Positions 12,495 to 36,299 of a stretch of DNA of 41,943 nt are shown here, piece by piece. The notes beneath the pieces were generated by a model. The model saw only the letters and a program-made list of their open reading frames with translations, made no database searches and had not been told where the DNA came from. The position numbers were made by a program, and so were the translations under genes. Each line of letters begins with the position of its first letter. Position 1 is the first letter of the stretch. This DNA is from Candidatus Gottesmanbacteria bacterium. Lineage in GTDB: Bacteria > Patescibacteriota > Microgenomatia > UBA10105 > UBA927. The stretch spans positions 1 to 41,943 of the forward strand of contig JACQHE010000039.1 of the NCBI GenBank assembly GCA_016199185.1. Reading direction: 5' to 3'.

Positions 12495-14714
12495 ATGAAA
12501 CTGCCGGACGCCTTTCATCAGTTTCTTCATAAAACCCCGCAGCGCGAAGAGGCGTATCTTTCGCTCGTCCTGCAGGCTGGGGCCGTGCAGGCCGCAGTAT
12601 GGACGCTCTCCTCTGGCAAAAAAGCCCGCATCGGGGAGGCGGCGCATGAACGCGTGGAAAGCGACCCCTCGGGAAGACTCGGGGCAAGCTCCTGGGATAA
12701 ACGGTTGGAAGCATGTGACCGCGCGATTGCAAAGATTGCCCAAAAAGCGCTCCGGGACGATTTTGAAAAAGTGGTGCTGGGCCTTCCCGCCTATTACCTT
12801 ACCCCGGATGACGATATTCATGAAGACTGCCGCGGGCACATCAAGACCCTCACGAGTGAGCTCGAGCTTACCCCCATCGGCTTCGTCCCTATCCACCAGG
12901 CGATCGTCCACCACATCAAGGAAGAAGAGGGCGTGCCGCCCAGCGTCATACTCCTGGAGGTAGGCCCCCAGAACACGACGGTGATCGTTTATAAGGTTGG
13001 GGCCATCGTGGGCCGGGAGCAAATCGCCAATGATGATATCGTGCCGCAACTGGAGCGGACGCTTAAAGGTCTCAAGGAGCTTGAGGTGCTGCCCTCCAGA
13101 GTTCTCCTTTATGGATCGGATGAGACGGCGATAGAAGCGTATAAACGAGACCTCCTCAAACACCCCTGGCCCACGCGGGCGAACTTTCTCCACTACCCCA
13201 AGATCGAGCTTCTGCCAACCCTCGCGCTTGCCGGTGCCGTGTCGCTTGCCGGAGCGAGCGAGCTTGCTGGACAGGTGGGAGAAGCTGCAACTTCTGTCAT
13301 TCCGGCCAAGCCTGCCCCAGCGGAGGCTGGGGAGCCGGAATCCAGAGAAAAAGAAGAAGAGCCTGCCGTTGACCAAAACGTCGTGGAGGTGCCGCCGGAG
13401 ACGCTCGGGTTCCGGCGGGATGTGGATGTTTTGGAAAAACCTCAGGAGGTAACTCCCCCCACCCCACTCTTGAAACAAGAGGGGGAGAAGGGGAAGGGAG
13501 AGGAGATCAGAGAAACGCTTACGCGCTTCATTTCAGGTGTAAAGCTTCCGAGGGTTCGGGCAGTCGCACTTCCTAAAACCGGACTTTTTGTCCTTTTCAT
13601 TGTTGTCTTTCTCATTGGCGCAGGGTGGTGGCTTACCTACTGGGTGCTTCCCAAAGCGAGCATCACCATCCTTCAGCTGCCGCATGTACTTTCCGAATCT
13701 TCTTCTATGACGGTCAATCCTACGGCTACCGTCGTGGACGCTGCAACGAAAACCGTGCCCGGCAGGAAGCAGGAAAAGACGGTAAGCGGCGAGAAAACCA
13801 CAGCCGTCACCGGCCAGAAAGACATCGGTGATCCGGCCCGGGGCACCGTGACGGTCTACAACAAATCGCCCACGAGTAAGCAACTCAAGAAAGGCGCCGT
13901 GCTGACCGCCGGTTCCTTATCCTTCACACTGGATAGCGACGTTTCCATCGCCTCCGCAAGCGAAAGCGTCGGGTCCATCACGTTCGGCAAGGCTAATGCG
14001 GCGATCACCGCCGCTAAACTTGGGTCCCAGAGCAATCTGCCGGCAAGTACGGAGTTTAGCTTGAAAGATACGTCCACGAGCGTCATAGCGGGGAGAAATG
14101 ATGCGGCCCTGACCGGGGGGACGAGCAAGGTGGTGAGGGTTGTTTCCCGGGCAGATCAAAGCGCATTGGTGGACGCGCTAACCGGCGAGCTCATTGACAA
14201 AGCCAAGGGTGAGCTTGAAGCAAGCGTGGGTGGAGCAGAGCGGCTCATCGATGAAACCATCAAAACCACGGTGACGAATAAGAAATTTGATCAAGAGCTG
14301 GACCAGGAGTCCAACGAGCTTCACGGCAGTATCACCGTGACCATCACCGGCATTTCCTACAGTGAAAACGACATTGCATCGCTGTTTGCTGATCTGGTGG
14401 CAGCGAAAGTGCCGGCGGGGTACACGCTTCGGGAGGGTGGGGCACACGTAAAAGCTTTTCAAGTGAAGGTTCAAAAAGACGGAAGCATTACGCTTACTAT
14501 CGAGTACCAAGGTCAGGCGCTGCCAACGTTTGATACGGCTGCCATTGGGTCTGGGCTTGCCGGCAAAACATTTGCCCAGGCGCAGGAAGACATCAAGACG
14601 GTAAGCGGCGTGGGTGGCGTGGAGTTTGGGTCAGTCTCGTGGTCGCTGTGGGGGGGCACCACGTTTCCGGCAAATGCAAAAAACATTACCGTCTCCGTGG
14701 CCGTGCTTGAGTAG
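12495..14714 (+). CDS. large bitopic protein: degenerate actin-fold N-domain, PE-rich linker, LPKTG + TM helix, beta-rich extracytoplasmic domain
   Basis: 739/740 aa (GTG 12492 or ATG 12495). TACAAT at 12481-12486. LPKTG at nt 13569-13583 followed by LFVLFIVVFLIGAGWWLTYWVL. The C-terminal half is rich in S/T/A/G/V. It resembles proteins I recall being annotated baseplate J-like in CPR genomes (weak recollection). Confidence 0.7.
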   Translation: MKLPDAFHQFLHKTPQREEAYLSLVLQAGAVQAAVWTLSSGKKARIGEAAHERVESDPSGRLGASSWDKRLEACDRAIAKIAQKALRDDFEKVVLGLPAYYLTPDDDIHEDCRGHIKTLTSELELTPIGFVPIHQAIVHHIKEEEGVPPSVILLEVGPQNTTVIVYKVGAIVGREQIANDDIVPQLERTLKGLKELEVLPSRVLLYGSDETAIEAYKRDLLKHPWPTRANFLHYPKIELLPTLALAGAVSLAGASELAGQVGEAATSVIPAKPAPAEAGEPESREKEEEPAVDQNVVEVPPETLGFRRDVDVLEKPQEVTPPTPLLKQEGEKGKGEEIRETLTRFISGVKLPRVRAVALPKTGLFVLFIVVFLIGAGWWLTYWVLPKASITILQLPHVLSESSSMTVNPTATVVDAATKTVPGRKQEKTVSGEKTTAVTGQKDIGDPARGTVTVYNKSPTSKQLKKGAVLTAGSLSFTLDSDVSIASASESVGSITFGKANAAITAAKLGSQSNLPASTEFSLKDTSTSVIAGRNDAALTGGTSKVVRVVSRADQSALVDALTGELIDKAKGELEASVGGAERLIDETIKTTVTNKKFDQELDQESNELHGSITVTITGISYSENDIASLFADLVAAKVPAGYTLREGGAHVKAFQVKVQKDGSITLTIEYQGQALPTFDTAAIGSGLAGKTFAQAQEDIKTVSGVGGVEFGSVSWSLWGGTTFPANAKNITVSVAVLE

Positions 14715-14715
14715 T

Positions 14716-15495
14716 ATGGCACTGCATCGCTATGTCAAAGCGCCACCGAACACTCGTCCACCGGGACAAGAAATAGCCGGTCCTCCCCCCGTTCCTTCGT
14801 TTCGTCGGCGGACGGCCATCTCGTACTTATTTATCCTTGCGGGACTCGTGATCCTCTCCTGGGCTCTCTGGCCCATTGTGTCATTCACCATATTTACCGC
14901 CCCGACGTACGTCGGGGTCATCTCGCCGGTACCAGACCGGGTGAGCGATACCAACGTAGGGAGCGTGCTTTCGCCGATCGTGAGCGCAGCATCAACGACC
15001 GAGGTCGTAACCGATGGCCCCGATTACACCAACGCCAACGTATGGTTTCCCACAAGTCCCCAGAAAAAGGTAGTATCGGCGGTGACAGCCTACACGCTCT
15101 CTATCCCTAAGCTCGGCATCAACGATGCCCTCGTGATCATCTCCGGCGATGACCTCAATAAAAGCCTCATCCATTACGGCGGCACGGGGCTCCCTGGGCA
15201 GTACGGGACGGCGGTTATCTTCGGCCACTCGGTGCTGCCGCAGTTTTACAATCCCACCAACTACAAAACGATATTTTCGACCCTGCCGACGATGAAGATC
15301 GGGGACGAAATTTTCATCCGTTATGACGGGGTTGAGTACCGCTACGTGGTGTATGAGATGACCGTCACTGAAGCCAATGATTTGTCCCCTCTCGCCCAGC
15401 GGTTTGACGATAGCTACGTGACGCTTATCACCTGTGTGCCGCCGGGGACATATTGGAAGAGGTTGAATGTGAGAGCGAGGCTCGAGCGCATTTAG
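14716..15495 (+). CDS. sortase family transpeptidase
   Basis: Start chosen at MALHRYV, 1 nt after the upstream stop. N-terminal TM anchor, catalytic His (VIFGHSV), TLITC Cys motif and downstream Arg (NVRARL). Confidence 0.85.
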   Translation: MALHRYVKAPPNTRPPGQEIAGPPPVPSFRRRTAISYLFILAGLVILSWALWPIVSFTIFTAPTYVGVISPVPDRVSDTNVGSVLSPIVSAASTTEVVTDGPDYTNANVWFPTSPQKKVVSAVTAYTLSIPKLGINDALVIISGDDLNKSLIHYGGTGLPGQYGTAVIFGHSVLPQFYNPTNYKTIFSTLPTMKIGDEIFIRYDGVEYRYVVYEMTVTEANDLSPLAQRFDDSYVTLITCVPPGTYWKRLNVRARLERI

Positions 15496-15497
15496 CG

Positions 15498-15629
15498 TAA
15501 ATCCTAAGCACTAAATCCTAAACTCTAAACAAATTCAAATGACCAAAATTCAAAATATAAAACAGTTTTGAACATTGAGTATTGAGATTTTGATATTGTT
15601 TAGGAATTAGAAATTAGGATTTTGGATTT
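15498..15629. repeat. family-B word-repeat hairpin element, copy 1
   Basis: About 130 bp built of AAATCCTA-type words on the left arm and TAGGATTT-type words on the right arm. It ends in GGATTTTTTT. Closely similar to 16897-17026. Confidence 0.8.
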
Positions 15630-15639
15630 TTTTGCGAAT

Positions 15640-16899
15640 ATGAAAAGCGAACACCGTCAATTAGCAATAGATGCGATCAAAAAGAAACTGACCGGTAAGA
15701 GGCTTTCGTATTACGAGATATTCGCCATCATGGATGAGATTGCCAACCAGCGCCTGGGTCCCGTGCTCACGACCTACTTTGCCGCCGCCGGATTTACCGA
15801 AGGATTTAATGACGAGGAGCTTTTCTTCCTCACGAAAGCCATGGTGGATACCGGTCCCAAGCTTCATTTCAAAGGGATCGTGGCGGATAAACACTCAACC
15901 GGTGGGGTCGCGGGTACGCGGACGACCATGATTCTCGTCCCCATCATCGCCGCCGCGGGCTTTCAGATCCCGAAAACGTCCTCACGCGCCATCACTTCCC
16001 CGGCCGGTACCGCCGATACTATGGAGGTGGTGGCGCCCGTCACGTTTAGTCCGAAGCAAATCGAAGCGTTGGTTGCCCGCGTCGGCGGGTGCATCGTCTG
16101 GGGCGGGCACTTGGGCCTGGCTCCCGCTGATGACGTGATCATCCAAGTAGAGCAGCCTTTGGCGTTTGAATCGTTTGACAAGATCATCGTCTCCATCATG
16201 GCCAAAAAGGTGGCCTCCGGGGCGACCCACTTGGTATTGGACATCCCCGTGGGGCCGACCATGAAGATCCAGCACTTTAAAGACGCCGAGGTAATAGCCA
16301 AGAAGTTTTCGTTCCTTGCCGGCAAGCTCGCCATGAAGGTTATTTTGGATATCAACGAAGCGTTAGAAAACGCCGGTCGGGGTATCGGGCCGGTGTTGGA
16401 GGCCCGCGACGTCTTTGCCGTACTTGCCCAGGATCCGGACCGGCCGCTAGCGCTGGAGGCGAAGACCTTGCGGCTTGCTGGCAAACTCCTGTCGCTTTGT
16501 TTTGGGGATACCAAAGGTAAAGAGGGAACCGACGGCGAAGCGGTGGCGCGCGAGATCCTCGCCTCCGGACAGGCAATGAAAAAAATGCGCGAGATCATCA
16601 AAGCCCAGGGCGGCGATCCGGATATCGACATTACGCACGTGACGCCGGGGAAGTTCCGCCATGAAGTGGGAAGTCCGCGCGCCGGTCGGGTAAGCCGCAT
16701 CGACAACCGGCAGATCACGGTGGTATGCCGGATTCTGGGGTGCCCCACGGACAAAAAAGCCGGGATGTACCTCAACCGCAAGCTCGAAGAGTCGGTGGAC
16801 AAAGGTGATATACTATGTACGCTCTACAGTTCGGACAAATGGAGACTGCAAGAGGCAGTGGAGACGATGAAGAATGTGCCGGTGTACACTATTGAATAA
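15640..16899 (+). CDS. AMP/thymidine phosphorylase family protein (archaeal DeoA-like core, no N-terminal extra domain)
   Basis: ATG at 15640 preferred over the TTG at 15622. Contains DKHSTGGVAG and IPKTSSRAITSPAGTADTMEV, glycosyltransferase family 3 motifs. Confidence 0.85.
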   Translation: MKSEHRQLAIDAIKKKLTGKRLSYYEIFAIMDEIANQRLGPVLTTYFAAAGFTEGFNDEELFFLTKAMVDTGPKLHFKGIVADKHSTGGVAGTRTTMILVPIIAAAGFQIPKTSSRAITSPAGTADTMEVVAPVTFSPKQIEALVARVGGCIVWGGHLGLAPADDVIIQVEQPLAFESFDKIIVSIMAKKVASGATHLVLDIPVGPTMKIQHFKDAEVIAKKFSFLAGKLAMKVILDINEALENAGRGIGPVLEARDVFAVLAQDPDRPLALEAKTLRLAGKLLSLCFGDTKGKEGTDGEAVAREILASGQAMKKMREIIKAQGGDPDIDITHVTPGKFRHEVGSPRAGRVSRIDNRQITVVCRILGCPTDKKAGMYLNRKLEESVDKGDILCTLYSSDKWRLQEAVETMKNVPVYTIE

Positions 16900-17026
16900 A
16901 TTCTAAGCACTAAATCCTAAATCCAAAACAAATTCAAATGACCAAAATCCGAAATACCAAACGAACCCGTTTCGAACATTTGGATTTAGAATTTTGATAT
17001 TGTTTAGGATTTAGAAATTTGGATTT
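16897..17026. repeat. family-B word-repeat hairpin element, copy 2
   Basis: Starts at the phosphorylase stop codon and ends at the ATG of the next ORF. Same orientation and near-identical arms to 15498-15629. Confidence 0.8.
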
Positions 17027-17218
17027 ATGTTTAAGAATATCATAGCTCCTGTGCAAGCGTGGCTTCTGTCGCAAGGGAAGTGCGTGGGATGCGGCAGACT
17101 GCTCTCGAAAAAATCAGGGAAAGGTCTTGTGCGGGTGACCTGTCATTGCGGCCGCGTATATATGTACGACAGTGGGGGTGGCTCCTTCCGTCGTGCGACA
17201 CTTGATGAAATCAAATAA
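17027..17218 (+). CDS. small zinc-ribbon protein
   Basis: 63 aa with CVGC ... CHC. It overlaps the mltG start by 14 nt. Confidence 0.45.
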   Translation: MFKNIIAPVQAWLLSQGKCVGCGRLLSKKSGKGLVRVTCHCGRVYMYDSGGGSFRRATLDEIK

Positions 17219-18185
17219 ACCTTATCCGACGCGCTTTTTCCTCCTCCTGGCTGTGGCTGTGGCCCTCGTTGCTGCCGGCTGGCTCTGGTGGCGCGATGCG
17301 ATTTCCGCGGTCAACCCGGGGGACAGCTCGCCGCAGATTTTTGTCGTCAAGCGTGGCGAGGGGGTCAAAAGCATTGCCGGGAGGCTTGCGATGGTCGGCT
17401 TGATCCGAAGTCCGACGGGATTTTACATCCTCGTTAAGCTCATGGGACTCGAGCGCGATCTGCAGGCGGGTGATTTTCGGCTCAATCCGGCCATGGATGC
17501 CGGGAGTGTCGCACGGGAGCTTACGCATGGGACGCTGGACGTGTGGGTGACCACGCTTGAAGGGTGGAGAGTGGAGGAAATAGCTGCAAAACTCACGAAA
17601 GAGCTGGATATTCCTGAAAGCGAGTTTGTCAAAGTCGCCCGTGAAGGGTACATGTTTCCGGATACCTACCTCATTCCCCGTGACGCGACCGTAGGAGCGG
17701 TGGCAGCGCTTTTTACCGCTACATTTGATAAGAAAGTTGATGAAGCAATGCGCGCGGATGCCAAGAAAACCGGATTAACGTTTCCGGAAGTAATGACGCT
17801 TGCCTCAATCGTCGAGCGGGAGGGAAGAACGAATGATGACCGGCCGGTGATTGCAGGAATTCTTCTCAAACGTTTGAAAGCCGATTGGCCACTCCAGGCG
17901 GATGCGACCCTCCAGTACGCGCTCGGGTATCAGACGGGGGAGAAGACGTGGTGGAAGAAATCATTATATGAGGAGGACAAAAAGGTGAAGTCCCCGTACA
18001 ATACGTACACCAATCCGGGACTGCCGCCCGGGCCGATTGCCAATCCGGGCCTTTCGGCTATCAAAGCCGTGATTTATCCCAAGGAATCCGATTACTGGTA
18101 TTACCTCCATGATCCCGAAGGCGTCGTGCATTACGCCAAGACGCTCGCGGAGCATAATAGCAACATCGCCAAGTACCTTCGATAA
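17205..18185 (+). CDS. mltG: endolytic murein transglycosylase MltG/YceG
   Basis: Start chosen at MKSNKPY followed by a TM helix. Contains ASIVEREG, LQADATLQYALG and YNTYTNPGLPPGPIANPG. Confidence 0.9.
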   Translation: MKSNKPYPTRFFLLLAVAVALVAAGWLWWRDAISAVNPGDSSPQIFVVKRGEGVKSIAGRLAMVGLIRSPTGFYILVKLMGLERDLQAGDFRLNPAMDAGSVARELTHGTLDVWVTTLEGWRVEEIAAKLTKELDIPESEFVKVAREGYMFPDTYLIPRDATVGAVAALFTATFDKKVDEAMRADAKKTGLTFPEVMTLASIVEREGRTNDDRPVIAGILLKRLKADWPLQADATLQYALGYQTGEKTWWKKSLYEEDKKVKSPYNTYTNPGLPPGPIANPGLSAIKAVIYPKESDYWYYLHDPEGVVHYAKTLAEHNSNIAKYLR

Positions 18186-19937: not shown

Positions 19938-19984
19938 CACCCCCTACATTTTGGCCGCAGAGGGGTATACAATAGGGCAGAATG
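19938..19984 (+). repeat. promoter-like direct repeat, copy 1 (ends in ATG)
   Basis: CACCCCCTACATTTTGGCCGCAGAGGGGTATACAATAGGGCAGAATG. It differs from 20738-20785 by one C indel and one G/A. Confidence 0.85.
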
Positions 19985-19995
19985 CTTCAAAATCT

Positions 19996-20652
19996 ATGGC
20001 ATATATTTTCCTCGATGAGAGCGGGGACTTAGGTTTTACTTCTGGGAAGAAGAACTCCGACTATTTTGTCATCACATTTATAGCCTGTGAAGACAAACGG
20101 GCGCTTGAGAAAGTGGTAAAAAATGTTCATCGATCTCTCCGGAAAAAGATCAAACGATTATCAGGTGGCGTACTTCATTGTTACAAGGAGAAGCCGAAAA
20201 CCCGCAGAAAAATGCTGTCGATAGTATCAGGTCTTGAGATTTCTGTAATGACGGTCTGTTTAAATAAGAGTCGTGTCCATACAAACCTCAAAGAAGAAAA
20301 ACACCTATTATATAACTACGTTGCCAATATCCTTCTTGATAGAATTTTGACCAAGAAACTTGTTAGTACGAGCGGAAAAGTTACGCTCATCGCTTCCAAG
20401 CGGGAAACCAATAGATTCTTAAACGAAAATTTTTCCTCTTATTTAGCAGATCAAGCTCGAAGGAATCACAAGATGAATCTGGAAATACTGATTCGGACCC
20501 CATCAGAAGAAAAAGGATTGCAGGCTGCCGATTTTGTCAGCTGGTCAATCTTTAAGAAATATGAAGAAAGTGATGATACCTACTACAAAATGATTAAAAA
20601 GAAGATTGTTGAAGAGAATATGCTTTTCGGCTCCAATACGACAAAACCCTAG
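19996..20652 (+). CDS. DUF3800 domain protein
   Basis: Start chosen at MAYIFLDESGDLGF, the family-typical opening. LQAADFVSW lies near the C-terminus. 218 aa. Confidence 0.75.
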   Translation: MAYIFLDESGDLGFTSGKKNSDYFVITFIACEDKRALEKVVKNVHRSLRKKIKRLSGGVLHCYKEKPKTRRKMLSIVSGLEISVMTVCLNKSRVHTNLKEEKHLLYNYVANILLDRILTKKLVSTSGKVTLIASKRETNRFLNENFSSYLADQARRNHKMNLEILIRTPSEEKGLQAADFVSWSIFKKYEESDDTYYKMIKKKIVEENMLFGSNTTKP

Positions 20653-20737
20653 GCGCTATTTACGAGGAACCATCCGGAACCCCACGTCTAGGGATTTACT
20701 TGTCACCTGTTATTATACACGAACCGTCAAGTCCGTG

Positions 20738-20785
20738 CACCCCCCTACATTTTGACCGCAGAGGGGTATACAATAGGGCAGAATG
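20738..20785 (+). repeat. promoter-like direct repeat, copy 2 (its ATG is the type IIG start codon)
   Basis: CACCCCCCTACATTTTGACCGCAGAGGGGTATACAATAGGGCAGAATG. TACAAT at 20769-20774 lies 8 nt before ATG 20783. Confidence 0.85.
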
Positions 20786-23700
20786 AGTAATTCCTTGCAT
20801 GATATAAAACAGTTGTGGGCGAAGGATAAAGATTACTACCGCAAAGTTGAGGTTGGGACGGGTGTGCAAAGTTTTGTTAAAAAGCTCCTCGAGTCTGAAG
20901 AGATATTTAATCTTAACGAAGGTAAACTATCTACAAATACTCTCATAAGAAAAAACGAATTCATTCAAGAAAAAGATGCGAAAGAGAGGCGGAGAGCTGA
21001 TTTCTATATTTACATTACCCAAGATATCGCCATACCCATCGAGGTCGAGTGTTACGGAAATATCAAGGCGGGAGTTATACAATTACTTAACTACCAAAAA
21101 GATTTCGACAAGCATTATGGAATACTTACTGATGGCTATGAGTGGCGATTCTATAATAACAACGCTTACAAAGCATTCACCTTAGACGACATTTTCGAAC
21201 ATATCGATCCTTTCCTCACTTTTTGGAAGGAATATATCAAACCAGAGTTTTACTATCTTTCATTCTTTGAAAGGACAGGACAACTCGCACTTATTGAAGA
21301 AACAAAACTTCATGTTGAAGACAATCGTCAACTTTTCTTTGAGGATATCACCAAGCTTATTCAGTCGTTTAAGAACAAGCTACAAATTGAGGGGTATCTT
21401 AAAGAAGTAGACAAAAAGACGCGAGAGAAACGAGCAATTGAGCTAACCTATGCCTACGTCATCCAATTTATTCTCTACAAAACATTGGTGGACAATGACT
21501 TCGACGATTTCACTAAAGAATTTGAAACAACCGTTACCAAGATACATGAGTCTCTAAAAGATAAGCGGTACAAGGATATCTTAGGTATTATCGAAGGCAT
21601 CTCGGCTAATATTTCAAGGAATGTCTATCGCCCATTCACTAAAGAGCAGGAGTTTATAAAAGAGAAGATTCAAGAGCTATATCATAGCCTTGAAAATAGC
21701 CTCTCTGACGTTTCCCCATGGCTTGATATCTTCATTTTTATCAAGAAATACAACTACGCTAACGTCAGAAACGAAATTTTTGGTTACATCTATGAAAACT
21801 ATCTAAAGGAACTTTACGAAGAAAGCAAGAAAGGTCAATACTTCACCGATCCGGCAGTCGTTAACTTTATGCTTGACCAAATCGGCTATACCCCAGAAGT
21901 TGTGGCAAGAAGAGCATCACAAGATCCCGATAGCGTCTCCATCATCGACCCCTCTTGTGGTAGCGGTACATTCCTTTACTCAGCAACGGATTCGATAGTC
22001 AAAGCCTTTCAAGGCGATAGTGAAGAAGCTTCCGAAAAGATTGAGAAAGTAGTTACTAATGGTGTTTTCGGACTCGACATTGAAGAGTTCCCTCTTTATT
22101 TGGCTGAGATGAATATCTTGATGCGTATGCTTCCTCTTATCATCAACGAAAAGTACAACAATCCCATTGACAAGAAAATTAAAGTTTTCAAAACAATGGA
22201 TTCAGTCTCTGAGTTTATGGACACCGCACTTAGAAATACTATTAACGATACAAATGTTGAGTTTGAGAAGAACAAGGGTCAGACATCGTTATTCTCGATA
22301 TTTGAGAAAAAGTTGAACCTTGGTTACTCAAGTTATGTTCGTGATGAAGATGACCTGCAGGAAATGAAAACGAGCCTTGAAAATCAGCCTGATGTTCCAA
22401 GACGACGTTTTGACTATGTTATCGGCAATCCACCTTATATTCCATATAACGAATGCGCAAAACAACGTGTGCTTATATTTGAATTGATGAAGCAGGGCAA
22501 GTCAAAATTAAGCGATATATATGGAGTAAATTTGCATAGTACTCCAACTCGACAAAAAAGAAATCCTCCAAAACCAAATTTTTATGCATTTTTCATAGCA
22601 CTTGGATTGGCCTTACTAAAAGATGAAGGCAAATTATGTTTCATTGTTCCTCAAACAATATTGACGGCTGGGGACTTAGATATTATTCGATATCACTTAG
22701 TTAAACTTACGACAATTGAGAAGGTTATTACATTTAGTGGGAAGATGTTTTTAGGGCGTGGGCTTAGACAAAATAAACCTGTTGCTACATCAAGTTTAAT
22801 CTTTGTTGTAACAAGAAAGGTTCCACCAACACTTCATGAAGTTGATATAGTGAATTACTTTGGTTCAGACATAGACATAGAAACTATATTTAGGAACATT
22901 AGAGAAGGAAAAAAAATTAAGAAAAAGAGAATCCTCCAATCAAAGCTGCTCCAAAGTATAGAAAATTGGAATCTAATTAGGTTAGATAAACAAACAATTG
23001 ACTTCTTAGAGGAATATAAAGCTAAAACCAACGATTTAAGTGAATACTACACTCACTCTTTAGCAGATTTTCACTATAAGAGTAACTTCTATTTTGACAT
23101 TGGCTACGAAATCAACGAGAAATTACTTTTACAAGAACCCTCAGTCTATAAATACCCAAAGTTGGACATCAATTTTTCGGTTAAAAAATGGAGAGGTTTT
23201 TGGCCGAACGAAAGAAATAAAAATTCCCGATATTTCATCAAGCTTCTGACCACTAATCAAGGCCATAATTTACTAGATAGTCCCTTCAAAGTATTATGGT
23301 CTTACATCAATCCGAATAAATTCCACTTTTCATCGGAACCTTTGATATGGGCAAGGAATCAAATATGTGCAATTGGTAGCAAAAACAAAGAAGAAATATT
23401 GTATCTTTTTTGTCTGCTCAACTCACCAATTACAAAACTGATTCTTTCATCTTTATTGAGGTCAGAGAATGAAAAGGATTTTTTGATCTCCATCGCTTCA
23501 GTTAAAGGGTTTATTCGTGTACCACGAATAACTGATAACAACAAACACCTCAAAAATTCAGTCATAAGTTTGACCGTAAAGCTCTTGGACTTAGAGAAAT
23601 TAACTCTTGCAGATTTAGTTGACTTCTCAGGGACCTTAAAACAAAAATTTGACAAAGTTAATGTTCAGGATAGCTATCTCGTTTTAGAAAAAGACGGCGA

Positions 23701-23992
23701 GAAGTTAGAGTTGCCAATCAAGAAGGATACATTATTAGTTAGTAAAATTATTGAGGCTCACTACACCAAAAAAGGTCTTGATTTAGAAGGTAAAACGATT
23801 ACCCTGTCGGAACTTGTATCACTACCCGCGATTGACTTTGAGAAACAAAAAAAGATCAAGGATACTATAGATGATTTAGTTTTTTGTCTCTATTTCAATA
23901 TAGATATACCGAAAAATAAAGTCACCGACGTAAAATTTATTAAATCCAGCTGCGAGAAGAATAAGTTTTATAAACTAGTAAACCATGAATAA
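20783..23992 (+). CDS. type IIG restriction-modification enzyme (PD-(D/E)xK N-domain + gamma-class N6-adenine methyltransferase + C-terminal specificity region)
   Basis: 1069 aa. N-terminal ADFYIY...IPIEVEC...QLLNY...GILTDGYEWRFY. MTase motif I IIDPSCGSGTFLYSA and motif IV VIGNPPYIPY. Strongly AT-rich. Confidence 0.85.
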   Translation: MSNSLHDIKQLWAKDKDYYRKVEVGTGVQSFVKKLLESEEIFNLNEGKLSTNTLIRKNEFIQEKDAKERRRADFYIYITQDIAIPIEVECYGNIKAGVIQLLNYQKDFDKHYGILTDGYEWRFYNNNAYKAFTLDDIFEHIDPFLTFWKEYIKPEFYYLSFFERTGQLALIEETKLHVEDNRQLFFEDITKLIQSFKNKLQIEGYLKEVDKKTREKRAIELTYAYVIQFILYKTLVDNDFDDFTKEFETTVTKIHESLKDKRYKDILGIIEGISANISRNVYRPFTKEQEFIKEKIQELYHSLENSLSDVSPWLDIFIFIKKYNYANVRNEIFGYIYENYLKELYEESKKGQYFTDPAVVNFMLDQIGYTPEVVARRASQDPDSVSIIDPSCGSGTFLYSATDSIVKAFQGDSEEASEKIEKVVTNGVFGLDIEEFPLYLAEMNILMRMLPLIINEKYNNPIDKKIKVFKTMDSVSEFMDTALRNTINDTNVEFEKNKGQTSLFSIFEKKLNLGYSSYVRDEDDLQEMKTSLENQPDVPRRRFDYVIGNPPYIPYNECAKQRVLIFELMKQGKSKLSDIYGVNLHSTPTRQKRNPPKPNFYAFFIALGLALLKDEGKLCFIVPQTILTAGDLDIIRYHLVKLTTIEKVITFSGKMFLGRGLRQNKPVATSSLIFVVTRKVPPTLHEVDIVNYFGSDIDIETIFRNIREGKKIKKKRILQSKLLQSIENWNLIRLDKQTIDFLEEYKAKTNDLSEYYTHSLADFHYKSNFYFDIGYEINEKLLLQEPSVYKYPKLDINFSVKKWRGFWPNERNKNSRYFIKLLTTNQGHNLLDSPFKVLWSYINPNKFHFSSEPLIWARNQICAIGSKNKEEILYLFCLLNSPITKLILSSLLRSENEKDFLISIASVKGFIRVPRITDNNKHLKNSVISLTVKLLDLEKLTLADLVDFSGTLKQKFDKVNVQDSYLVLEKDGEKLELPIKKDTLLVSKIIEAHYTKKGLDLEGKTITLSELVSLPAIDFEKQKKIKDTIDDLVFCLYFNIDIPKNKVTDVKFIKSSCEKNKFYKLVNHE

Positions 23993-23998
23993 TATTTA

Positions 23999-24018
23999 TT
24001 CCCCTATTTAGAGGGGAA
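23999..24018 (+). terminator. hairpin after the type IIG gene
   Basis: TTCCCCT-ATTTAG-AGGGGAA begins 7 nt after the stop codon. No clear T-run follows. Confidence 0.4.
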
Positions 24019-24120
24019 CTAGCTTTACTAATAGAAATGTTAGATTTTATGTTTGAAGCACAATTTAGAAAAATCAGCAAAGGTTGAATAATAGGATTAG
24101 ACATCGGCGTGTGTATTTGT

Positions 24121-24711
24121 ATGCAGACTTTTTCTAAAAGAAACAATCTTAAAGGTGAATATTCCGGTTATGGAAGAGCATCTCTGAGTCTTAGAAATAG
24201 ACTACTCCAATTATATGGACTCCCTTATAGTGGCAATGAATTCCACTTCGGTTTGGGTAACACCAATTGGATACATGAAATTGCTTTTAGCAAAGATTTA
24301 CAAATGCATTTTGGTCGAATAATTCCAATCGAAGCCTTTCGGGATGAATCACTAACAACTTATGATGAAATATTTGATTTTATTGAGCTTTATTATGCCC
24401 GAGCTGTTGAGGATTTAGATGGGCACAAAAGGTTAATACTTATTAGAGATATTGTCACAGCGTTTAATAGTTCTGGTTCTGTTTATGAATTCAGCAATGA
24501 TGGAGAAGTAATTTTGAGGATTGATGACGATACTGCTGAAAAAATCACCGAAGTAGACACCATTCTTAAGCCTTTTCCTGAGGCTCAGGAAGTGTATAGG
24601 GATTGCGCTAGAGGCTTATTTACTCGCTCAAAAGTCCCTAAAAACGTTGTGGGAGACATGTATGTAGTTTTTGAGGAATATCTAAAAAAAGTAGTCATCA
24701 AAGTACAGTAG
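24121..24711 (+). CDS. AbiJ-like abortive-infection protein, N-terminal part (frame broken at an A7 tract)
   Basis: MQTFSKRNNL...LSLRNRLLQLY matches the AbiJ N-terminal domain opening (FSxRN ... LRNxLW). The frame ends 6 codons after AAAAAAA at 24684-24690. Confidence 0.6.
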   Translation: MQTFSKRNNLKGEYSGYGRASLSLRNRLLQLYGLPYSGNEFHFGLGNTNWIHEIAFSKDLQMHFGRIIPIEAFRDESLTTYDEIFDFIELYYARAVEDLDGHKRLILIRDIVTAFNSSGSVYEFSNDGEVILRIDDDTAEKITEVDTILKPFPEAQEVYRDCARGLFTRSKVPKNVVGDMYVVFEEYLKKVVIKVQ

Positions 24712-24728
24712 ATAAAGCAATCCAACAT

Positions 24729-24935
24729 TTGCTGACTAAGCTATTATTACACCCAACTCAAATTTCAATAACTGAAAAATTAAAAGCCTACCGTGGAGAT
24801 GTTTGGGGACCGGCTCACGCAGGAAATAGCCCGAAGCCAGATGAAAGTGATGCTTTATGGTATTTGGAGTCGATTGTTGCGCAAATAAAATACATCGATC
24901 GTAAAATCAAGCAAGTTGAAGAAAAAGAAAATTAA
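24729..24935 (+). CDS. AbiJ-like protein, C-terminal Abi_C/HEPN part (other frame)
   Basis: This frame is open from 24675. KLKAYRGDVWGPAHAGN...ALWYLESIVAQIKYI fits the Abi_C/HEPN R-x-n-H-G core. There is no independent ATG or SD (the track start is a TTG). Confidence 0.55.
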   Translation: MLTKLLLHPTQISITEKLKAYRGDVWGPAHAGNSPKPDESDALWYLESIVAQIKYIDRKIKQVEEKEN

Positions 24936-24997
24936 CCACCTATGCACATCAACCCTGTGGGTTAGATAGGTTTTTGGATATGTTTTTGCACAAAAGC

Positions 24998-25870
24998 ATG
25001 ATGAAAGAAATGAAACAGACGAAATACAAATTGGCAATTTTTGAAGGTCGGAAGATCCGCCGCCATTGGGATGCGGAGAAAGAACTCTGGTATTTTTCAG
25101 TGGTGGATATTGTGGCTATCCTAACAAATCAGCCAAACTTTCAGTTAGCCAGAAATTACTGGAAAGTATTGAAAAGTCGTTTAAAAAAAGAGGGGAGTGA
25201 AGCGGTTTCAAAATGTAACCGGTTGAAAATGGAGGCGGAAGACGGAAAATTAAGAGAAACTGACGCGGCGGATGTAGAAACGATTTTGCGATTAGTGCAA
25301 TCAATACCCAGCCCCAAAGCCGAACCGATAAAGTTATGGTTGGCGCGTGTGGGCTACGAACGAATCCAGGAAACAACAGATCCGGAAAAGTCCATAAACA
25401 GGGGCAGAATGAATTGGCAAAAAATGGGCCGGAGTCAAAAGTGGATACAGCAGCGAATGATGGGACAGGAAATCCGCAACAAGTTAACGGATTACTGGAA
25501 ACATCACGAAGTAAAAGAACAGGACGAATACGCGATTTTGACAAATATTATTCATGAGGAATGGAGCGATTTTTCAGTAAGGGAACATAAAGCAATTAAA
25601 AGGCTTAAAACAGAAAACCTCCGCGACCATATGACGGACGCGGAACTGGTATTTACTGCCCTTGCGGAACTTTCCACGCGACAAATTGCCGAAACAATGA
25701 GATCAAGAGGTTTGGAAGAAAATAAAATTCCTGCTAAAAAAGGCGGCCGGATTGCTAAAAACGCCAGACTAGAGTTGGAGCAAAAAACCGGAAAGAAGGT
25801 CATCAGCGGGTCAAATTATCTTCCGCAAGGACGAAAAAGATTGTGGAAATCAACCCGAGGGGTTAAATAA
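24998..25870 (+). CDS. Bro-N / DinD-like DNA-binding protein (paralogue 2)
   Basis: KYKLAIFEGRKIRRHWDAEKELWYFSVVDIVAIL plus the shared C-terminal region with 1036-1857. The start is uncertain (ATG at 24980, 24998, 25001 or 25010). Confidence 0.6.
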   Translation: MMKEMKQTKYKLAIFEGRKIRRHWDAEKELWYFSVVDIVAILTNQPNFQLARNYWKVLKSRLKKEGSEAVSKCNRLKMEAEDGKLRETDAADVETILRLVQSIPSPKAEPIKLWLARVGYERIQETTDPEKSINRGRMNWQKMGRSQKWIQQRMMGQEIRNKLTDYWKHHEVKEQDEYAILTNIIHEEWSDFSVREHKAIKRLKTENLRDHMTDAELVFTALAELSTRQIAETMRSRGLEENKIPAKKGGRIAKNARLELEQKTGKKVISGSNYLPQGRKRLWKSTRGVK

Positions 25871-25916
25871 TTTTTTGATTCTGTTTTGCATAAAAACATG
25901 GAAGGAGAACGGACGT

Positions 25917-26051
25917 ATGAAAAGGAAAAAATATGGAACGCAAAAACCAGTGTGCGGGGTGTACGGCAGCGGCCGGAAGACTTTGCCTGCGTACACTTAT
26001 ACAACGATCCGCGCCAAGGACCGCCAATTCATTAGAGCAAAACTGATATGA
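25917..26051 (+). CDS. 44-aa basic upstream ORF translationally coupled to the nucleotidyltransferase gene
   Basis: GGAAGGAG lies about 10 nt upstream of ATG 25917. The peptide is MKRKKYGTQKPVCGVYGSGRKTLPAYTYTTIRAKDRQFIRAKLI. Its TGA overlaps the next ATG (ATATGA). Confidence 0.3.
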   Translation: MKRKKYGTQKPVCGVYGSGRKTLPAYTYTTIRAKDRQFIRAKLI

Positions 26052-26893
26052 AGCCAAAACAACCAACCGATAAGAAGTCCACGAACGATACTATCATTGC
26101 AACACTCAGAGAGATCGAAAAGACCCATCAGGTGACTATCCTGTATGCGGTAGAGTCCGGAAGCAGGGCGTGGGGATTTGCATCGAAAGACAGCGATTAT
26201 GACATTCGATTCGTGTATCACCATCCTCTGGAATGGTACATCAGCATTGAGGATAAGACCGACGTCATTGAACACCCGATGATCGGCCCGTTGGATATTT
26301 GCGGGTGGGACATACGAAAGGCGCTTGCACTCTACAAAAAATCAAACCCCCCGCTTTACGAATGGCTTGTTTCTCCTATTGTCTATAAAGAAAGAGGCAC
26401 GTTTGCCCAACAGTTACGGTCGCTCATGCCAACGTACTACGCGCCAATCGCAAGCATCCATCACTATTTACATATGGCAAGAGGGAACTATCGACAATAC
26501 CTGCAAGGTAGCGTCGTTTGGGTCAAAAAGTACTTTTATGTTTTGCGCCCCATTTTTGCGTGCATGTGGATTGAACACTACAGCATCCAGGCGCCAATGG
26601 CGTTTATAACAATGCTTGAGAGACTTCCCCTTGATGAGAATGTGAGGGAAGAGGTTTGGCGCCTCTATGAGAGAAAAAAGTTAGGGGAAGAGTTAGATAA
26701 AGGAAACAGAATAGCCGTTCTTAACGATTTTGTAGATGAAAAAATTCAGTATTTTGAAAAATACGCACAAGAAATAAAACCAGAACGGAAGATAAAACTT
26801 GATCCATCACGGTTGGATCGCATCTTATATGACACGTTAAACCAGACTCCCTGGAGCCGCCTACGCCTGCACTCCAAGGAGAATATATGCTAA
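26048..26893 (+). CDS. pol-beta superfamily nucleotidyltransferase (YcgL / PF10127-like)
   Basis: 281 aa. ESGSRAWGFASKDSDYDIRFVY is the GS...DxD NTase core, followed by a helical C-terminal domain. Confidence 0.75.
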   Translation: MKPKQPTDKKSTNDTIIATLREIEKTHQVTILYAVESGSRAWGFASKDSDYDIRFVYHHPLEWYISIEDKTDVIEHPMIGPLDICGWDIRKALALYKKSNPPLYEWLVSPIVYKERGTFAQQLRSLMPTYYAPIASIHHYLHMARGNYRQYLQGSVVWVKKYFYVLRPIFACMWIEHYSIQAPMAFITMLERLPLDENVREEVWRLYERKKLGEELDKGNRIAVLNDFVDEKIQYFEKYAQEIKPERKIKLDPSRLDRILYDTLNQTPWSRLRLHSKENIC

Positions 26894-27030
26894 GGGTTCC
26901 TACCGGCATTATGGAAATTTACATAGATTTGAGAACTTCATGATCCTCAATAAAACCATCCTCATCCCGGAAGATGATCAGACGCTCGAGTTTTTGCTCT
27001 TTGTCTCATCCGCTGTTGTCCCCTCATGCT

Positions 27031-36215: not shown

Positions 36216-36299
36216 AAGTACACAAAGAAGTACAAAGTACAAAGTCAAAAGTACAAAGTATTAAACACTTTGTACTCTGTACTCTTGACTCTTGACTCT
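36216..36299. repeat. family-A word-repeat hairpin element, copy 2 (rpsL-rpsG spacer)
   Basis: 7-nt words AAGTACA/AAGTCAA on the left and CTGTACT/CTTGACT on the right. The central perfect 10-bp stem is AGTACAAAGT / ACTTTGTACT with a 7-nt loop. It ends 2 nt before the rpsG ATG. Confidence 0.75.

Follow-up and report, generated by a model that had tools for sequence, protein, structure and literature searches.

The 41,943-nt contig JACQHE010000039.1 of Candidatus Gottesmanbacteria bacterium, hereafter the window, carries two hairpin-forming elements, B1 and B2, on either side of a gene of the thymidine/AMP-phosphorylase family. We consider it highly probable that B1 and B2 are independent insertions of a proliferating, gene-less palindromic element of the same type as the intervening sequences (IVSs) of rRNA genes, presumably cut by RNase III, and that the phosphorylase gene between them was inherited. 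The evidence comes from a relic start codon of a four-helix-bundle protein gene retained in both elements, from members of the same sequence family in the 23S and 16S rRNA genes of related bacteria, and from relatives in which the corresponding gene junctions are empty. The window constitutes contig C32 of its own genome (G000), a 625-kb draft assembly of 57 contigs. The comparison set included 41 related genomes (labeled G0xx), among them 25 genomes of the same family and 6 genomes of the same order.

Hairpins B1 and B2 and the distribution of family B

B1 occupies positions 15498..15629 of the forward strand, with arms at 15499-15555 and 15566-15622 separated by a 10-nt loop, and accounts for 132 of the 144 nt that separate the sortase stop codon (TAG, 15493-15495) from the phosphorylase start codon (ATG, 15640). 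B2 (16897..17026, forward strand; arms at about 16896-16954 and 16970-17028) supplies the stop codon of the phosphorylase gene (TAA, 16897-16899), and its 3' end abuts the ATG (17027) of an open reading frame (ORF) for a 63-aa protein, zn63. The two elements are direct copies, their halves being 88 and 81% identical without gaps and the whole elements 83% identical (BLAST). The original prediction, made from the sequence of the window, had described two direct copies of a hairpin element, with near-identical arms, around the phosphorylase gene, and both the coordinates and the sequences agree with this description. The elements are, as likewise proposed, long imperfect palindromes (70% complementarity between the 57-nt arms of B1). 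The minimum free energy of the RNA is -34.7 kcal/mol for B1 (z -5.3) and -32.5 kcal/mol for B2 (z -5.45), with none of 200 shuffled sequences folding equally well. The arms are composed of words with a period of 7/14 nt, of the degenerate heptamer type AAATCCT / AGGATTT. The T7 run reported at the 3' end of B1 was located at 15627-15633. A scan for promoter and terminator consensus sequences gave no match in B1 or B2, and in Rfam the B1/B2 region had only a chance sub-threshold match to a plant miRNA family (23.6 bits vs. a gathering score of 101.7).

Other copies of the element, collectively termed family B, were located in G000 by BLAST and by an nhmmer profile, which B1 and B2 match with E-values of 1e-32 to 1e-33. 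The genome contains seven full gene-less copies, one gene-bearing split copy, one half copy (contig C40), and one diverged copy (contig C10). In addition to the sortase|phosphorylase (B1) and phosphorylase|zn63 (B2) junctions, copies are found between rpsE and rplO (S5|L15) within the ribosomal-protein operon, between secD and secF in reverse orientation relative to the genes, 4 nt upstream of the nusG ATG and again in reverse, in front of an ABC ATPase gene with which the copy shares its orientation, between a lon-like gene and the RNase J gene (the gene-bearing split copy, C12:5202-5678), and, in frame, inside a 543-aa membrane glycosyltransferase-like ORF on contig C9. Both orientations are represented among the family-B copies. 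Nor do the copies share the T-run, which is absent from B2 and from a copy on contig C39. Beyond G000, family B was found in 20 of the 41 related genomes, which represent several families of the class. An origin of the hairpins in situ by heptamer slippage was considered and rejected, since copies at dispersed sites share 82-88% identity over 130 nt.

A census of inverted repeats in G000 missed family B at a mismatch penalty of -2 and was repeated with a penalty of -1 and a block-shuffle null; it yielded 73 inverted repeats at a score where the block-shuffled genome gives none. Roughly 25-30 of them are gene-less word-repeat hairpins, which form at least six families.

The pairing of the arms is maintained by compensatory changes. 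In a MAFFT alignment of 37 family-B copies from 12 genomes, in which an outer stem of 34 pairs was scored, 80.6% of the cells pair, a value that drops to 54-56% when the partner column is shifted by one. Covariation scored 0.147 vs. a shuffle mean of 0.119, and none of 500 shuffles reached this score. Double-sided changes (UA, CG, GC, AU) concentrate at columns 8, 15, 22, and 29, i.e., at one variable base per heptamer. Within a given copy the words tend to change together, e.g., from CTAAAT/ATTTAG to CGAAAT/ATTTCG or CCAAAT/ATTTGG, so the compensatory changes do not represent independent events.

The copy on contig C9 lies within a coding sequence. Homologs of this membrane protein in three relatives (G008, G017, and G012) contain 8-16 residues at the place where G000 has about 45, with both flanks aligned and a single open frame. 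A stop-free frame of any kind is present in only 6 of the 46 collected family-B copies, and the stop-free frame of the C9 copy is the frame of its host gene. Three copies in G020 likewise have frames that are open across the whole fetched locus and are surrounded by membrane-protein-like flanks. The same 543-aa ORF contains a second in-frame palindromic word-repeat element (C9:6453-6532) with TTATAA-type words and 34-nt arms, which encodes ...ITVIKIIKVIKIITVITIIIFIILIK.... On contig C10, a diverged hairpin-derived segment, KAQSSKLKAQINIKAQSSKSSLDFGFDWKFDIW, was observed at positions 2636-2752 within a 711-aa O-antigen-ligase/TPR-like membrane protein; its homolog in G020 (L069) has an in-frame family-B copy at a different position.

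Four-helix-bundle genes and rRNA intervening sequences

In the gene-bearing copy of G000 (C12:5202-5678), a 363-nt ORF lies between the left and right arms. The ORF matches PF05635 (E 6e-12) and TIGR02436 (E 1e-18); PF05635, a four-helix bundle, is named "23S rRNA intervening-sequence protein." The ATG of the gene is that of the conserved CAAATGACC in the left arm, and the start together with the first nine or so codons falls within the inner part of this arm. A relic of this start is present in B1 at 15539..15571 of the forward strand (ATG ACC AAA ATT CAA AAT ATA AAA CAG TTT TGA, MTKIQNIKQF*), where it aligns with the true ORF starts MTEIPIHKHYDLEER of the C12 gene, MDKIQSTKQYDLEDR of G007, and MNQKISTKRFDLEDR of G025, all in the same place of the left arm. 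The relic ATG of B2 is located at 16938-16940 (forward strand). Both elements retain the ATG and about nine codons and then resume at the sequence that follows the stop codon of the gene, without a PF05635 ORF. Because both of them keep the start codon of the gene in the left arm, B1 and B2 appear to be gene-less derivatives of a four-helix-bundle hairpin cassette.

Full four-helix-bundle genes with family-B arms and the same in-arm ATG were also found in G007 (L043) and G025 (L044), in both cases in ordinary operon spacers. Among the three proteins identity is 54-59%, and none of them exceeds 32% identity to the other sampled four-helix-bundle proteins, which argues for inheritance of the arms and the gene as a unit. 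Four-helix-bundle genes in general are widespread, being present in 36 of the 41 genomes with up to 14 per genome. A tblastn search of G000 with the C12 protein returned no paralog; a profile search detected two more four-helix-bundle genes in this genome, with unrelated arms. Inverted word-repeat arms, unrelated in sequence, flank both of these genes and 8 of the 12 genes sampled from the relatives. A further locus, C24:137-540, looks like a decay intermediate of a four-helix-bundle cassette: its word-repeat arms (44 nt, AATTCTC units) enclose just the C-terminal third of a gene, whose match to TIGR02436 is limited to positions 66-108 (E 6.6e-5).

Family B was also observed inside rRNA genes. 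The 23S rRNA gene of G025 contains two copies in apical loops, at about positions 583 and 1218 of the Rfam large-subunit model, which by our reading of the model structure would correspond to helices 25 and 45. The 16S rRNA gene of the same genome has a 176-nt insert in a hairpin loop near position 1160 of the Rfam small-subunit model. In G033, a 187-nt insert is located near position 1765 of the 23S rRNA gene (Rfam), and one more family-B copy lies next to a tRNA in the rRNA operon. Since the same sequence family sits in the apical loops of 23S and 16S helices of relatives, classical IVS sites among them, family B can be assigned to the rRNA IVS type; it appears to include true rRNA IVSs and to colonize mRNA as well. 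This link to four-helix-bundle genes and rRNA IVSs goes beyond what the original prediction had seen.

IVSs of rRNA and their conserved ORF have been known for more than 30 years. Helix 45 of 23S rRNA is the IVS site of Coxiella burnetii, and the origin, mobility, and function of rRNA IVSs and their four-helix-bundle ORF are not understood (PMC4990558). In bacteria of the candidate phyla radiation (CPR), numerous short insertions devoid of an ORF occupy the classical IVS sites of rRNA genes, and insertions of both 16S and 23S genes contain 23S_rRNA_IVP ORFs (PMC11270868). In the literature searched, we found no account of IVS-type elements in protein-coding operons or coding sequences and no description of dispersed non-rRNA PF05635 cassettes or of CPR palindromic repeats.

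The phosphorylase gene and its junctions in relatives

The gene enclosed by B1 and B2 (15640..16899, forward strand) encodes a 419-aa short form of the thymidine/AMP-phosphorylase family, with a product that reads IPKTSSRAITSPAGTAD. Its scores exceed the cut-offs of two models of archaeal-type thymidine phosphorylase, NF003338 (471.2 bits, cut-off 434) and TIGR02645 (441.3 bits, cut-off 434.6). The match spans only model positions of about 85-492, and the absence of an N-terminal domain, stated in the original prediction, is thus confirmed. For the AMP phosphorylase model TIGR03327, the score of 430.4 bits is below the cut-off of 535, and the first ~83 model positions are absent.

The phosphorylase gene is present as a single copy in 33 of the 41 relatives, including all genomes of the same family (25/25) and the same order (6/6), and all orthologs have the same short form. 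Orthologs from the closest genera are 86% identical, those from elsewhere in the family 62-79%, those from the order 67-70%, and those from other families 57-65%. Thus, at a coarse level, the identity gradient of the gene follows the species tree, the pattern that the original prediction had set against its proposal of a cassette acquired or mobilized between repeats. The G+C content of the gene equals that of its flanking genes.

The gene upstream of B1 encodes a sortase (14614..15495, forward strand; PF04203, E 5.6e-21; TIGR01076); it ends 2 nt before B1 and is syntenic in relatives. Downstream of B2, the zn63 ORF (17027..17218, forward strand) encodes a zinc-ribbon-like protein with a CxxC...CxC pattern and is followed by the mltG/yceG gene (17172..18185, forward strand; PF02618, E 1.2e-76; TIGR00247). 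The order sortase-phosphorylase-zn63 is conserved across genera. In 12 of the 13 relatives examined, zn63 starts directly after the phosphorylase gene, the exception being G002, which lacks zn63 at this place. The zn63 product has no match in Pfam or NCBIfam; its start, MFKNIIAPVQAWLL..., is conserved, and zn63 is a genuine conserved gene.

Both spacers of the phosphorylase gene are empty in some of the relatives. In G022, one of the two closest relatives, the sortase and phosphorylase genes are separated by about 1 nt; the corresponding distance is about 0 nt in G002 and about 25 nt in G003. Between the phosphorylase gene and zn63 there is 1 nt in G014, G023, and G018, and there are 7 nt in G021 and G008; this second spacer is occupied in G022, G020, G011, G017, and G016 by palindromic word-repeat hairpins of other families. 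Other family-B sites of G000 behave similarly. The S5|L15 spacer is 2-11 nt in G008, G022, and G017, with a different hairpin in G020 and G002. The secD and secF genes overlap (ATGA) in G014, G002, and G017 and are separated by hairpins of other families in G022, G020, G008, and G023. Overall, empty sites were found at four junctions across genera. A family-B copy between secD and secF is common to G000 and G016, in the same orientation and with homologous flanks. Some copies must therefore be old and vertically inherited; the junctions, for their part, turn over. Certain translationally coupled junctions seem to act as recurrent landing or tolerance sites. At phosphorylase|zn63 (L014-L023) and secD|secF (L102-L111), at least four unrelated hairpin families were observed across genera, with words such as CAAATCT, AACTTTAA, CCAGGGAGTGAAATTTCGAC..., and CATTG, and other genera have empty junctions.

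Because the operon order is conserved and the spacers are either empty or filled with other hairpins, B1 and B2 can be regarded as two separate insertions. Since the phosphorylase gene is single-copy, its identity tracks taxonomic rank, its synteny is conserved, and both spacers are empty in relatives, the proposal of a cassette is refuted; the gene is an ordinary, vertically inherited core gene rather than cargo. As regards the phosphorylase, this outcome is deflationary.

Several further repeats were noted in passing. In the window, the rpsL-rpsG spacer (36229-36297) contains a different word-repeat hairpin ("family A") with AAGTACA words and 34-nt arms that are 71% complementary. A 45-nt direct repeat (19940-19984 and 20741-20785, 98% identical, 801 nt apart) brackets an ORF of 233 aa (19951-20652) at the edge of an A+T-rich island (20000-27000). 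Elsewhere in G000, a 125-aa ORF at C35:9201-9762, which by its motifs resembles a DUF559 / very-short-patch-repair-like endonuclease, has the same 63-nt self-complementary G+C-rich unit (CCCTTCCCCCTCTTAAAGTAAGAGGGGG...) on both sides. Perfect loopless palindromes of 36-40 nt are located at C45:5478-5517, C52:13672-13711, C41:531-566, C39:9899-9934, and C44:4751-4786; two of them have the half-site TTGACAAC...CGG in common and two have TAAGGTACTTCCTTGCGT, and they may be operator-like or recombination sites. Finally, an IS200/RAYT-like Y1 transposase gene with YHVYNRG...HFHFLL motifs (C40:18064-18657) lies between two copies of a 31-nt palindrome, TAGCCTCGAAGGGTGAGACCCTTCGAGGCTA, forming a REP/RAYT-like unit. 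The family-B half copy of the same contig (C40:18803-18858) is about 150 nt away. This gene was considered as a mobilizer of family B and rejected, as its flanking repeat is a different, G+C-rich 31-nt palindrome.

Proposed mechanism, rival explanations, and known systems

A transcribed copy of family B would fold into an imperfect double-stranded stem of roughly 55 bp. The RNase III of the cell, whose gene (rnc) is present in G000 (C41:8099-8698, 234 bits), would be expected to cut this stem in the same way as rRNA IVSs are cut. Such a cut would split the sortase / phosphorylase / zn63-mltG transcript into pieces with stem-capped ends. Translation of zn63 probably needs processing or melting of B2, since the zn63 start codon is buried at the base of the B2 stem. 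The elements would persist because the gene junctions of the compact genome tolerate them, and the four-helix-bundle protein may be a sequence-specific partner of its own arms.

Several points weigh against this account. The draft assembly of G000 lacks its own rRNA genes (the 23S gene was looked for). Derivation may in principle have run the other way, the gene having been inserted into the loop of a pre-existing hairpin. No target-site duplication was found among 47 copies, the words shared at the boundaries following the distribution for mismatched flanks, and no enzyme is known to move these elements, nor is any catalytic activity known for PF05635 proteins. Some copies, such as the one shared by G000 and G016 at secD|secF, are old, and a part of the cross-genus similarity may reflect constraint and not transfer. 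Finally, the in-frame C9 copy argues that cleavage is at least not complete; translating ribosomes may melt the hairpin, and the in-frame copies imply that cleavage need not occur where ribosomes traverse it.

Two of the rival explanations were suggested by the layout of the locus. B1 and B2 have the same orientation and bracket exactly one gene from start to stop, as would be expected for a mobile or horizontally acquired phosphorylase cassette of the composite-transposon kind. This explanation is scarcely credible, given that all 31 genomes of the same family or order contain the gene once, that relatives without the repeats have it at the same place, that its identity to orthologs tracks rank, and that its G+C content is that of its neighbors. 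Moreover, synteny with the sortase and zn63 genes is conserved around spacers that are empty or filled with unrelated hairpins, and family B is found at seven other unrelated sites. A role of family B as a general hairpin terminator or insulator of transcription is very unlikely, despite its long stem, the T7 run of B1, and the T-rich ends of several copies. Copies are located in rpsE|rplO, in secD|secF, in a coding sequence, and in the 16S and 23S rRNA genes of relatives, where termination would be harmful; the stem is A+T-rich, the T-run is missing in B2 and the C39 copy, no consensus is matched, and both orientations occur. Of the genome-wide family of giant terminator or insulator hairpins yielding about 50-bp dsRNA put forward in the original prediction, the description stands, with about ten copies in G000, whereas the function lacks support. 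Far from occurring at most intergenic regions, family B is present at only about 10 of an estimated several hundred junctions.

The other two rivals concern the way in which the hairpins spread or are kept. REPIN-like non-autonomous hairpins, moved as single-stranded DNA by a Y1 (IS200/RAYT-type) transposase with the four-helix-bundle gene as a passenger, would account for the missing target-site duplication, which fits HUH/Y1 chemistry, and for the size and doublet-hairpin shape of the elements, and the genome does encode a palindrome-flanked IS200/RAYT-like protein (C40:18064-18657). The palindrome on both sides of the latter gene is a different, G+C-rich 31-nt sequence, however, whereas family-B arms flank a four-helix-bundle gene in three genomes, with the protein and the arms inherited together, and no conserved tetra- or pentanucleotide target is evident at the left boundary; we therefore regard this explanation as unlikely. 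Somewhat less doubtful, although still improbable, is the view that the hairpins are not selfish and represent host-selected signals of RNA processing or stability, i.e., sites for RNase III that serve to uncouple cistrons or to shield 3' ends and that were recruited independently at many junctions. It is favored by the different hairpin families that phosphorylase|zn63, secD|secF, and S5|L15 hold in different genera and by the compensatory changes that keep the arms paired. On the other hand, many genera have overlapping or abutting genes at these junctions, so that the hairpin is dispensable there, copies are present in coding sequence and rRNA, and the relic start codon, together with the remnants of decayed genes, speaks for a gene-bearing ancestor. 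This view is also compatible with insertion of IVS-type elements, as inserted elements can later be co-opted.

For annotators of ultra-small (CPR) genomes, it follows that hairpins of about 130 nt are able to interrupt operons, to provide stop codons, to conceal start codons in their stems, and to extend membrane proteins by segments of roughly 44 residues.

Among known systems, B1 and B2 do not conform to an intrinsic terminator, which has a G+C-rich stem and a U-tract at the end of a transcription unit, or to a composite transposon, as relatives without the repeats keep the gene at the same place. Family B shares with miniature inverted-repeat transposable elements the small size, multiple copies, terminal inverted repeats, and lack of an ORF, but it lacks a target-site duplication (47 copies). 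Gene-bearing parents (C12, L043, and L044) and a decay intermediate (C24) exist, and the protein that they encode is a four-helix bundle with no known transposase activity. Correia elements (CREE) duplicate a TA target and are able to carry promoters as well as an IHF site; neither a target duplication nor a promoter consensus is seen in family B. The CREE of Neisseria are small co-transcribed inverted repeats whose hairpin RNA is bound and cut by RNase III (PMC2649163), the same mode as proposed here for family B. With REPIN/RAYT systems (PMC3733652), family B has in common the gene-less hairpin doublets, a single-copy gene flanked by the same repeats, and the lack of target-site duplication. 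In contrast to them, it flanks a gene for a four-helix-bundle protein, which has no known nuclease fold, and not for a Y1 transposase, and its arms are A+T-rich heptamer arrays, whereas REPs are G+C-rich.

Rickettsia palindromic elements (RPEs), which a review of miniature inverted-repeat elements (PMC10969869) also mentions, are palindromes of roughly 100-150 nt that, like family B, are found both in intergenic regions and in frame within genes, where they lengthen the protein by a peptide segment and leave the host frame open. Their sequence is unrelated to family B, and they are not known to have a link to a four-helix-bundle gene or to IVS sites of rRNA. Heptamer arrays of Xanthomonas and Nostoc (PMC4692102) and of Geobacter metallireducens (PMC2700814) consist of about four 7-nt units, sometimes in convergent inverted pairs, and are similar to family B in being transcribed and located mainly between co-directional genes and sometimes within genes. 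They were interpreted in these papers as G-quadruplex or regulatory motifs, and no associated gene was named; family-B arrays differ in their A+T-richness, in invariably pairing as a hairpin, and in their connection with PF05635 and rRNA. Family B may offer an origin for such unexplained heptamer arrays in other phyla.

The closest counterpart is provided by the rRNA IVSs of Coxiella burnetii (23S helix 45) and Leptospira (PMC4990558) and by the ORF-less insertions of CPR rRNA genes (PMC11270868), which share with family B a long stem of terminal inverted repeats, heptamers in tandem within the stem immediately upstream of the start of the ORF (cf. the GACAGAT repeats of Coxiella), and a loop that either contains a four-helix-bundle ORF or does not, the ORF being optional in known IVSs. 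The differences are that B1, B2, and all other copies in G000 are located in mRNA (at junctions and in one coding sequence) and not in rRNA helix loops, and that family B has about ten copies with shared arms per 0.6 Mb. Excision by RNase III without religation is a feature of IVSs that would extend to family B under the mechanism outlined above. What is new here is the presence of many same-arm copies in one genome, the same arms in rRNA, junctions, and coding sequence, the relic start codon, and the empty sites of several genera. With one protein subfamily, one arm sequence, and many sites, the mobility of IVSs becomes a tractable comparative and biochemical problem. We tentatively suggest, with slightly less than even confidence, that four-helix-bundle genes and heptamer hairpins constitute one mobile class that targets any transcribed DNA, its pentameric protein reading its own array and recruiting or guiding the insertion machinery. 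If so, family B would be the first lineage to combine the same arms in 23S and 16S rRNA, junctions, and in-frame genes with gene-bearing and gene-less states and a protein that co-evolves with the arms. The classical rRNA IVS would then represent only the landing site of this class that is easiest to see.

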